Assembly (NCBI GenBank): GCA_016934325.1
Contig: JAFGSV010000004.1
Coordinates: 11,538-75,537, forward strand
Direction of reading: 5' to 3'
DNA from: Candidatus Aenigmatarchaeota archaeon
GTDB lineage: Archaea > Aenigmatarchaeota > Aenigmatarchaeia > QMZP01 > JAFGSV01
DNA length: 64,000 bases
Below the pieces are notes generated by a model. That model was not told the DNA's origin. It was given only the letters and a program-made list of their open reading frames with translations, and searched no databases. The first letter of the stretch is position 1. Every line of letters begins with the position of its first letter. This document shows positions 30,565 through 32,097 of this stretch, one piece after another. A program made the translations under genes and the position numbers.

Positions 30565-30648
30565 GCGGGGGTCCCCGAGCGGTCAAAGGGGCAGGGCTTA
30601 GGACCCTGTGGCTCAGTGCCTTCCTGGGTTCGAATCCCAGCCCCCGCA
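30565..30648 (+). tRNA. tRNA-Leu (anticodon TAG)
   Basis: Acceptor GCGGGGG/CCCCCGC. Anticodon arm CAGGG-CTTAGGA-CCCTG. Long variable arm TGGCTCAGTGCCTTC. T-arm CTGGG-TTCGAAT-CCCAG. Discriminator A. Confidence 0.9.
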
Positions 30649-30902: not shown

Positions 30903-31844
30903 ATGGTTTATTTGGAGAAAATCGAAAGAGTGGGCAAAACATATTACTATGTCACGAAGAACTTTAGGATTAGCGATAAAAAATGGAAGAAAATAAGGAA
31001 GTATGTTGGCGACAAGCCCCCCACAAAAGAGCAGACAAAGAAAGCGATTGTAGAGATTGAAAAAGAAGCGTTGAAAAAAGGTTTCATGAAACCCGCGTCT
31101 AAATATACTTATTTGAGCGATGAAGAAGCAGAGAAATTGCAGGATTTGAAAGAGGTCTTTAAGGAGTGGTACGAAAAATTAGGTGCCGTTGGAAAGAAGA
31201 AATATGAAGAAGATTTTGTTGTGAGATTCACATACAACTCAAATGCCATTGAAGGCAACCGTTTAAGCCTTCGTGAAACAAGTATGATTTTAACGGAAAA
31301 TATAATTCCCGCTGGTGCTACCCCCAACGATTACAATGAAGCCATAAACTCAAAGGACTGTTATGAATTCATGAAAGAATATAATGGCGAGTTTAATCAG
31401 AAGTTTTTACTGAAAATTCATGAACTTCTCACTAAAAACACTAACTGCAAGATTGTAGGTAACTATAGGGACCATGAAGTCAGGATTTCTGGTTCAGAAT
31501 GGATCCCTCCAACTCACGAAAAGGTTAAAGAAGAAATGAGAAGAATTTTCCAGTGGTACTATTCTAATAGAAAGAAACTGCATCCTGTTGAATTGGGTGC
31601 GATCTTGCATAATAAATTAGTCAGGATTCACCCATTTGCTGATGGTAATGGGAGAACATCAAGAGTTATAATGAACTGGATATCAATGAAAAACAACTTC
31701 CCTATGTTCTTTATAGAATTAAGAGATAAAATCAAGTATTATGATGCGGTTGAAGAAGGGGATAAAGGCAATGATGAAGCAATAGTGCATTACATTGCCA
31801 AAGTTCTGATGGAACAACATACATTTAAATCAGAGATGAATTAA
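30903..31844 (+). CDS. fic: Fic/DOC family protein (putative AMPylase) with an N-terminal inhibitory-helix motif
   Basis: Fic motif HPFADGNGRTSR. An upstream SNAIEGN matches (S/T)xxxE(G/N). AT-rich gene. Confidence 0.9.
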   Translation: MVYLEKIERVGKTYYYVTKNFRISDKKWKKIRKYVGDKPPTKEQTKKAIVEIEKEALKKGFMKPASKYTYLSDEEAEKLQDLKEVFKEWYEKLGAVGKKKYEEDFVVRFTYNSNAIEGNRLSLRETSMILTENIIPAGATPNDYNEAINSKDCYEFMKEYNGEFNQKFLLKIHELLTKNTNCKIVGNYRDHEVRISGSEWIPPTHEKVKEEMRRIFQWYYSNRKKLHPVELGAILHNKLVRIHPFADGNGRTSRVIMNWISMKNNFPMFFIELRDKIKYYDAVEEGDKGNDEAIVHYIAKVLMEQHTFKSEMN

Positions 31845-31978
31845 ACAGCATTAGTATATAGCGGGTTCGAATGCTGGTTCGAATATCTTACACAGCATTA
31901 AAACCATCCGTCATTTCCGCTCCGGCACTTTCGCCATTTTTAAAAATCAACAGCGTAAATATTAGCAATAAAATGATT

Positions 31979-32097
31979 GCGGGGGTCCCCGAGCGGTCAA
32001 AGGGGCTAGGTTCAGGGCCTAGTGGCTTAGTGCCTTCCTGGGTTCGAATCGCTTCCGTTCCAAGCGGTCCGGAAGCGCGATACTCCCAGCCCCCGCA
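31979..32097 (+). tRNA. tRNA-Leu (anticodon CAG) with a 35-nt intron in the T-arm
   Basis: The first 28 nt are identical to the tRNA-Leu(TAG). Anticodon arm CTAGG-TTCAGGG-CCTAG. The T-arm CTGGG-TTCGAAT is interrupted by 35 nt before CCCAG-CCCCCGC-A. The mature length would be 84 nt, as in the paralog. Confidence 0.8.
32050..32084 (+). other. Non-canonical tRNA intron (T-loop/T-stem junction)
   Basis: cgcttccgttccaagcggtccggaagcgcgatact contains the 8-bp hairpin CGCTTCCG/CGGAAGCG. The boundary is ambiguous by 1 nt. Confidence 0.7.

Follow-up and report, generated by a model that had tools for sequence, protein, structure and literature searches.

A probable bulge-helix-bulge intron in the T-loop of a tRNA-Leu(CAG) gene from an Aenigmatarchaeota genome

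The closest described precedent for a tRNA gene interrupted in its T-loop is provided by ARMAN-2 (Candidatus Micrarchaeum), whose pre-tRNA-Cys(GCA) and pre-tRNA-Pro(GGG) carry introns at position 59/60 and whose splicing endonuclease, EndA, is of the epsilon2 type (PMC3239211; PMC3488258). This enzyme was shown in vitro to cleave the 59/60 intron (Fujishima et al., 2011, PMC3239211); its loop lysine K161 was found essential by mutagenesis and confers broad specificity (PMC3488258), and residues R275 and W384 of EndA hold the bulged base (PMC12397907). According to Kaneta et al. (2018, PMC5829648), the epsilon2 EndA was known solely from ARMAN-1, ARMAN-2, and Mancarchaeum. Non-canonical and multiple tRNA introns, as well as “intron transposition,” are also reported for the Thermoproteales in works cited in PMC4033280 (Sugahara, 2008; Fujishima, 2010), and the non-standard introns of tRNA-Thr in Aeropyrum pernix are cut by an (alpha-beta)2 EndA (PMC3241643). 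An intron in the T-loop is, hence, a known kind of oddity, for which no description in Aenigmatarchaeota was found in the literature searched: the search for tRNA introns or EndA in Aenigmarchaeota gave nothing specific, papers outside that literature being possible.

The locus described here lies in a window of 64,000 nt (the whole stretch of DNA that was analyzed) on contig C19 of an Aenigmatarchaeota (DPANN) assembly, G000, which comprises 1.24 Mb in 35 contigs and is estimated to be 79% complete. The tRNA-Leu(CAG) gene occupies window positions 31979–32097 on the forward strand, measures 119 nt with its intron and does not encode the CCA end (GCGGGGGTCCCCGAGCGGTCAAAGGGGCTAGGTTCAGGGCCTAGTGGCTTAGTGCCTTCCTGGGTTCGAA-TCGCTTCCGTTCCAAGCGGTCCGGAAGCGCGATAC-TCCCAGCCCCCGCA). 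An intron-less paralogue, tRNA-Leu(UAG), sits 1.4 kb upstream (30565–30648, +) and was used as the reference for comparison. As an earlier note on this DNA had described, the first 28 nt of both genes are identical, the variable arms differ in a single base (TGGCTTAGTGCC in the CAG gene vs. TGGCTCAGTGCC in the UAG gene), the T-stem and the 3′ acceptor strand are the same, and the CAG gene contains 35 extra nt between TTCGAA(T) and (T)CCCAG. The 8-bp hairpin that had been noticed within this insert (CGCTTCCG/CGGAAGCG) was confirmed, and taking out the 35 nt did restore an 84-nt class II tRNA-Leu(CAG) with a normal cloverleaf according to ARAGORN. The 70-nt 5′ exon (31979–32048, +) contains the acceptor strand, the D-arm, the anticodon arm with CAG, the variable arm, the 5′ strand of the T-stem and the T-loop as far as A59, and shows 99% identity to intron-less orthologues in two relatives (G002 and G008). 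It is followed by the 35-nt intron (32049–32083, +; UCGCUUCCGUUCCAAGCGGUCCGGAAGCGCGAUAC) and by a 14-nt 3′ exon (32084–32097, +) formed by U60, the 3′ T-stem strand CCCAG, the 3′ acceptor strand and the discriminator A.

The unspliced gene was called neither by ARAGORN nor by the Rfam tRNA model (RF00005), whose only two tRNA calls in the window were Leu-UAG and Gln-CUG. A TATA-like element, TTTTTAAAAAT, is located at 31937–31947 (+), 32–42 nt upstream of the tRNA 5′ end, and is a putative archaeal promoter; the 17-mer that contains this TATA-like core, CCATTTTTAAAAATCAA, is kept upstream of tRNA-Leu(CAG) in G000 and in two genomes of the same genus, G001 and G002. The two tRNA-Leu genes are separated by a Fic/DOC-family gene (Pfam PF02661, E=2e-22; 30903–31844, +), located in a region whose G+C is lower. 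At the syntenic site of G002 these two tRNA genes are merely ~90 nt apart, so the Fic/DOC gene looks like an insertion beside them.

Bulge-helix-bulge (BHB) motifs are cleaved after the second nucleotide of the bulge. The scan of the 119 nt required, in both strands of the motif, four helix nucleotides with a bulge of 3 nt on their 3′ side, and cleavage was placed after the second bulge base. In the best-scoring candidate, 70 nt make up the 5′ exon and 35 nt the intron, and its borders coincide precisely with those that restore the tRNA; three of four positions are paired in the central helix (H), and the outer (h) and inner (h′) helices have 5 and 8 bp, respectively. Both flanking helices are present: the outer one, exon-exon, is the T-stem, whose 5′ strand CUGGG (32038–32042, +) pairs with 32085–32089, and the inner one, intron-intron, is the 8-bp hairpin (32050–32077, +), in which 32050–32057 are paired with 32070–32077. 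The central helix is formed by T-loop bases U54–G57 (32043–32046, +) and the intron strand CGAU (32078–32081, +) through the pairs U55-A, C56-G, and G57-C; U54 faces a U, and this mismatch leaves just three pairs. Cleavage is predicted in the 5′ bulge AA|U (32047–32049, +) between 32048 and 32049, and in the 3′ bulge AC|U (32082–32084, +) between 32083 and 32084. A nearly strict hBHBh′ motif, with two 3-nt bulges and three Watson–Crick pairs plus U.U, can thus be drawn at the exon-intron junctions.

The non-canonical T-loop position claimed in the earlier note was upheld by these borders, which give 59/60. The same note had placed the insert at 32050–32084; this yields the right product, and the two placements are equivalent because a T is repeated at both borders, but the BHB geometry prefers 32049–32083, that is, 59/60 and not 60/61. 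A border at 60/61 was rejected, since the central helix, worked out by hand, does not form there and does form at 59/60. The expectation that such an intron calls for relaxed recognition applies to several members of the intron family described below, which have G57.A and mismatches in h′, but hardly to this intron.

The minimum free energy (MFE) fold of the unspliced 119-nt RNA (−59.5 kcal/mol, z = −3.2 vs. shuffles) is a cloverleaf with the 8-bp hairpin projecting out of the T-loop, and the fold that combines the cloverleaf with the BHB reaches −58.9 kcal/mol, a cost of only 0.6 kcal/mol. Loose BHB-like motifs are frequent genome-wide (39,215 candidates), and stronger ones (h≥4, h′≥6) in the non-ORF part of the genome numbered 452 among ~7×10^7 position-by-length combinations. 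As loose motifs are common, the motif alone is weak, and its weight comes from its coincidence with the tRNA-restoring borders. A group I or other self-splicing intron was rejected as a candidate, 35 nt being far too short and nothing in Rfam having matched.

The 35-nt insert is very probably a genuinely spliced intron, and we infer its transcription, cleavage and ligation as follows. In the precursor, the T-stem would act as the outer helix, U54–G57 of the T-loop would pair with CGAU near the 3′ end of the intron as the central helix, and the 8-bp hairpin of the intron would be the inner helix, with the two 3-nt bulges AA|U and AC|U left over. A three-unit epsilon-type EndA would cleave both bulges, and RtcB would ligate the exons into the 84-nt class II tRNA, followed by CCA addition. 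The intron itself would be one copy of a short family found at the same T-loop site in several tRNA genes across a family of Aenigmatarchaeota.

The genome encodes the enzymes that such a pathway would use. Two endA genes were detected by PF01974 matches, on contigs C33 and C17, and a gene for the RtcB ligase is present on C27 (519 bits). The C33 gene (C33:7515–8711) is an intact 399-aa ORF that matches the ARMAN-2 EndA (PDB 4fz2_A, E=3e-98, query 17–399 vs. chain 18–387) and in which Pfam recognizes an N-terminal domain and two PF01974 stretches; judged by this full-length alignment, it is an EndA of the three-unit epsilon2 type. Enzymes of this type are single chains of ~395 aa built from alphaN, alpha, and betaC units, which act as homodimers on relaxed BHB substrates. 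The alignment to 4fz2 also indicated that the catalytic triad Y236/H251/K282 and residues K161, R275, and W384 are kept. The type of endonuclease predicted in the earlier note was, therefore, borne out by an epsilon-type EndA with the broad-specificity residue of the ARMAN-2 enzyme. Its closest relatives belong to Candidatus Aenigmatarchaeota MAGs (54–85% identity) and then to Micrarchaeota (41–47%), and these relatives place the host in Aenigmatarchaeota (DPANN) and not in the Thermoproteales.

The second EndA is an alpha-type protein of 210 aa (C17:13806–14435; locus L001:1168–1800), with best matches to the alpha subunits of M. kandleri, M. jannaschii, and N. equitans. Its catalytic Tyr and His are kept, and an Ala stands at the position of the catalytic Lys156 of M. 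jannaschii. The AHSIRA motif was invariant in the 22 relatives where it was found, out of 24 loci, and the protein co-occurs with the epsilon-type enzyme; by its sequence, it looks like a conserved, non-canonical paralogue.

The distribution of the epsilon EndA was analyzed in G000 and 40 relatives of the same order, and the gene was full-length in 36 of these 41 genomes; four others had it truncated or cut off by a contig end, and one had none. Among the GTDB species representatives, full-length epsilon-type homologues were found at 203 loci. The 80 loci kept from these were mostly from Aenigmatarchaeota and Micrarchaeota, together with single records labeled Nanoarchaeota, Iainarchaeum, and Kaiserbacteria (the latter probably mis-binned). 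As far as these homologues indicate, the epsilon EndA is spread far wider than the ARMAN-1, ARMAN-2, and Mancarchaeum of the 2018 paper.

The locus resembles the ARMAN-2 system in its 59/60 T-loop site, in the three-unit epsilon EndA that has K161 in its specific loop, and in coming from a small genome of DPANN in which numerous tRNA genes are disrupted; the ARMAN-2 tRNA-Pro intron is likewise a strict hBHBh′. In contrast to ARMAN-2, the host belongs to the phylum Aenigmatarchaeota, the interrupted gene is that of a class II Leu tRNA, the intron is part of a recognizable sequence family common to different tRNAs, and the genome has the conserved second alpha-type EndA paralogue without the catalytic lysine. 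With the Thermoproteales, as far as the works cited in PMC4033280 describe them, it shares BHB introns at many non-canonical positions, similar introns in non-orthologous tRNAs and a rapid gain and loss of introns between close relatives; according to the same accounts, however, these organisms are hyperthermophilic members of TACK, not DPANN, and use an (alpha-beta)2 EndA with a Crenarchaea-specific loop. Aeropyrum pernix also removes introns at non-standard positions by means of a specificity-loop lysine, with experimental support in that case, but differs in enzyme architecture, intron positions, and lineage (PMC3241643). The co-occurrence of an epsilon EndA with highly disrupted tRNA genes is thereby extended from Micrarchaeota to a second DPANN phylum.

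The state of tRNA-Leu in the relatives was established by a DNA search of the 40 genomes followed by inspection, the borders of the Leu introns being set by exon homology and not by the motif. According to their flanking genes, the loci of the two genomes of the same genus, G001 and G002, are syntenic orthologues of the one under study. The G002 gene has no intron at 59/60 and is identical to the spliced product at 83 of 84 positions, and tRNA-Leu without an intron at this site was also found in G008, G012, G013, G007, and G030. Furthermore, seven Leu genes of relatives (six CAG and one GAG) have mostly unrelated introns at the same 59/60 site. The tRNA-Leu of G001 contains three introns, one of which is an unrelated 45-nt sequence at 59/60; introns at this position measured 64 nt in G004, 63 nt in G011, 44 nt in G003, and 114 nt in G010, and a 33-nt intron was present in the Leu(GAG) gene of G024. 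The central helix of these Leu genes is formed by U54–R57 and the four intron bases that immediately precede the 3′ bulge. The six genes scored all had H≥3/4 and h′≥3, and the seventh, from G001, had H 4/4 and h′ of 6. The structure of the 59/60 introns of the Leu genes is conserved, and their sequence mostly is not. One genus thus presents, in syntenic orthologues, three different states at 59/60 (intron-less, the 35-nt intron, and an unrelated 45-nt one), so that introns at this single site turn over very rapidly between close relatives.

A search for further tRNA genes with ARAGORN and the Rfam tRNA model recovered only ~25–28 in G000, several of them with odd “introns”; the plain tRNA-family search gave 25 matches. 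Additionally, a SPLITS-like pass was carried out, in which BHB candidates outside long ORFs were enumerated and spliced out and ARAGORN was rerun, and several further genes surfaced only after this removal. A BHB intron at exactly 59/60 was detected in at least eight tRNA genes of the genome, several of them with a second intron. They comprise the gene under study (C19:43586–43620), Gly-TCC (C19:2149–2180), Arg-TCT (C2:5357–5397), Ile-GAT (C23:15992–16043), Arg-GCG (C26:6504–6536), Thr-TGT (C28:6535–6574), a tRNA gene without isotype assignment (C30:17413–17462), and a Lys-UUU-like gene (C7:11733–11763). Standard finders miss or mis-call most of these genes. Since such tools overlook tRNA-Leu(CAG) and many other tRNA genes of this genome, the tRNA complements of Aenigmatarchaeota MAGs and claims of “missing tRNAs” will be wrong unless BHB-aware tools are used.

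Two other tRNA genes of the assembly were unusual. The Lys(UUU)-like tRNA at C7:11544–11777 is apparently split by four inserts of 35, 39, ~52, and 31 nt; their removal restores the tRNA, although the anticodon loop is left with 9 nt if the third insert is given strict BHB borders. The maximum number of introns per archaeal tRNA gene has been given as three (PMC3239211). At C14:16956–17039, a tRNA-Leu with the anticodon AAG, with a wobble adenine, was observed, and Leu(GAG) was not seen in G000. A tRNA-Leu(AAG) with a wobble adenine is unusual in Archaea. The reported precedents are ARMAN-4 and ARMAN-5 (PMC3239211).

The 35-nt intron is not unique in sequence. From G51 in the T-stem into the intron, 22 nt are identical at the tRNA locus C7:11724–11745. 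The junction GTTCRAA-TCGCTTYCG occurred 18 times in 10 of the 41 genomes, nearly all from the same taxonomic family, vs. four occurrences of a reversed control. The inserts of this family measure 30–35 nt, follow the consensus N-C(G/A)CTTCCG-loop-CGGA(A/G)GG(C/T)G(G/A)AA-N and occupy at least six different tRNAs; the Leu(CAG) intron belongs to this T-loop intron family (CGCTTCCG...CGGAAG(G/C)GCG..). Its 3′ part, CGGAAGCGCGATAC, resembles family members in G005 (CGGAAGGGCGAGAT) and G003 (CGGAAGGGCGGAAT). In an alignment of 11 members, the BHB was paired in 90.4% of cells vs. 34–59% with the partners slid, a percentage that leans toward structure because the alignment was built with BHB criteria and from homologous sequences. 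In the same 11 members, tRNA position 57 covaries with its intron partner (A-U in four, G-C in three, and non-pairs in four). The exact intron core had no match in the JGI metagenome contigs. A 20-mer common with the C7 tRNA gave three matches there, all in non-tRNA coding sequence of unrelated contigs, and was dismissed as chance.

The most serious alternative is a pseudogene whose T-loop was broken by 35 inserted nt, such as a small mobile repeat, that are not spliced out of the transcript; CUG would then be decoded by tRNA-Leu(UAG), or the missing 21% of the genome would contain another Leu(CAG) gene for it. No second tRNA-Leu(CAG) gene was found in the 79%-complete assembly by ARAGORN, a sequence search or the SPLITS-like pass, although at this completeness an intact second copy is possible. 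CTG is the commonest Leu codon of the genome (35%), which speaks for a demand for this tRNA; the tRNA-Leu(UAG) encoded 1.4 kb upstream could read CUG by wobble, and the gene under study may therefore not be essential. The insert-free syntenic orthologue in the same genus is also compatible with a pseudogene, as it implies that the insert is evolutionarily young. Nevertheless, a pseudogene agrees poorly with an insert that has the exact BHB geometry at the tRNA-restoring borders, with the covariation of the intron base opposite position 57 across the family and with the conserved promoter. In this genome, at least eight tRNA genes have a BHB intron at 59/60, and the only Leu(CAG) gene detected in G001, a 90%-complete genome, carries three introns, one of them at that site. 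The possibility of decay, which the earlier note had raised, was checked against the intron-less syntenic orthologue, and the 83/84 identity of the exons indicates that the gene is not decaying. For these reasons, we consider a pseudogene improbable.

A spliced intron is likewise preferred to an insert that stays in the mature molecule, where it would enlarge the T-loop or add an arm and make the product an unusual tRNA or a tRNA-like RNA of different function. The MFE fold, in which the cloverleaf is kept and the hairpin projects out of the T-loop, would suit such an RNA. Against it, the T-loop makes the elbow contact in all tRNAs. Moreover, some orthologues have no insert and others have inserts of unrelated sequence at 59/60 (44, 45, 63, and 64 nt), so that the sequence of the insert is not conserved and the BHB is, and the genome encodes an enzyme of the type proven to cut at 59/60. 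Retention is, accordingly, very unlikely. An assembly or binning artefact, with the intron brought from another tRNA locus by mis-joined reads, is no more credible: the 22 nt that run from G51 into the intron do recur identically at C7:11724–11745 of the same assembly, and the JGI metagenome contigs gave no exact match to the intron, but in its 3′ half the intron departs from the C7 copy and looks like family members of other genomes, both junctions lie inside a 102-kb contig with flanks syntenic with G001 and G002, and a chimera is not expected to yield a perfect 8-bp hairpin together with a BHB.

Regarding the origin of the spliced intron, the family shared among tRNAs and the intron-less orthologue of G002 suggest that the Leu(CAG) intron was probably gained recently in this lineage, and they point to a gain by copying from the T-loop intron of another tRNA, a direction and mechanism that we infer from these comparisons. 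On balance, we lean toward a view in which short families of BHB introns in Aenigmatarchaeota pass between tRNA genes that are not orthologous, with 59/60 as their hot spot and the Leu(CAG) copy as a recent arrival. If this were true, the turnover would be enabled by the epsilon EndA, which is near-universal in the order and common to Micrarchaeota, and these genomes would offer a tractable natural system for studying how archaeal tRNA introns are gained. Intron families common to different tRNAs, combined with fast turnover, also bear on how non-canonical tRNA introns spread. The order-wide epsilon EndA, the 203 GTDB loci, the 59/60 hot spot and the intron families may together constitute an undescribed pattern.

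A second intron family, CCCTTTT..hairpin..AAAAGCG..CGGAAA, was observed at varied tRNA positions (variable region and T-loop) in relatives including G001. It gave eight matches in 81 kb of the relatives’ tRNA-Leu loci (L008, L010, L011, L015, L020, L027, and L031) and none in the 1.24 Mb of G000. In G006, this family looks tandemly duplicated within one intron.
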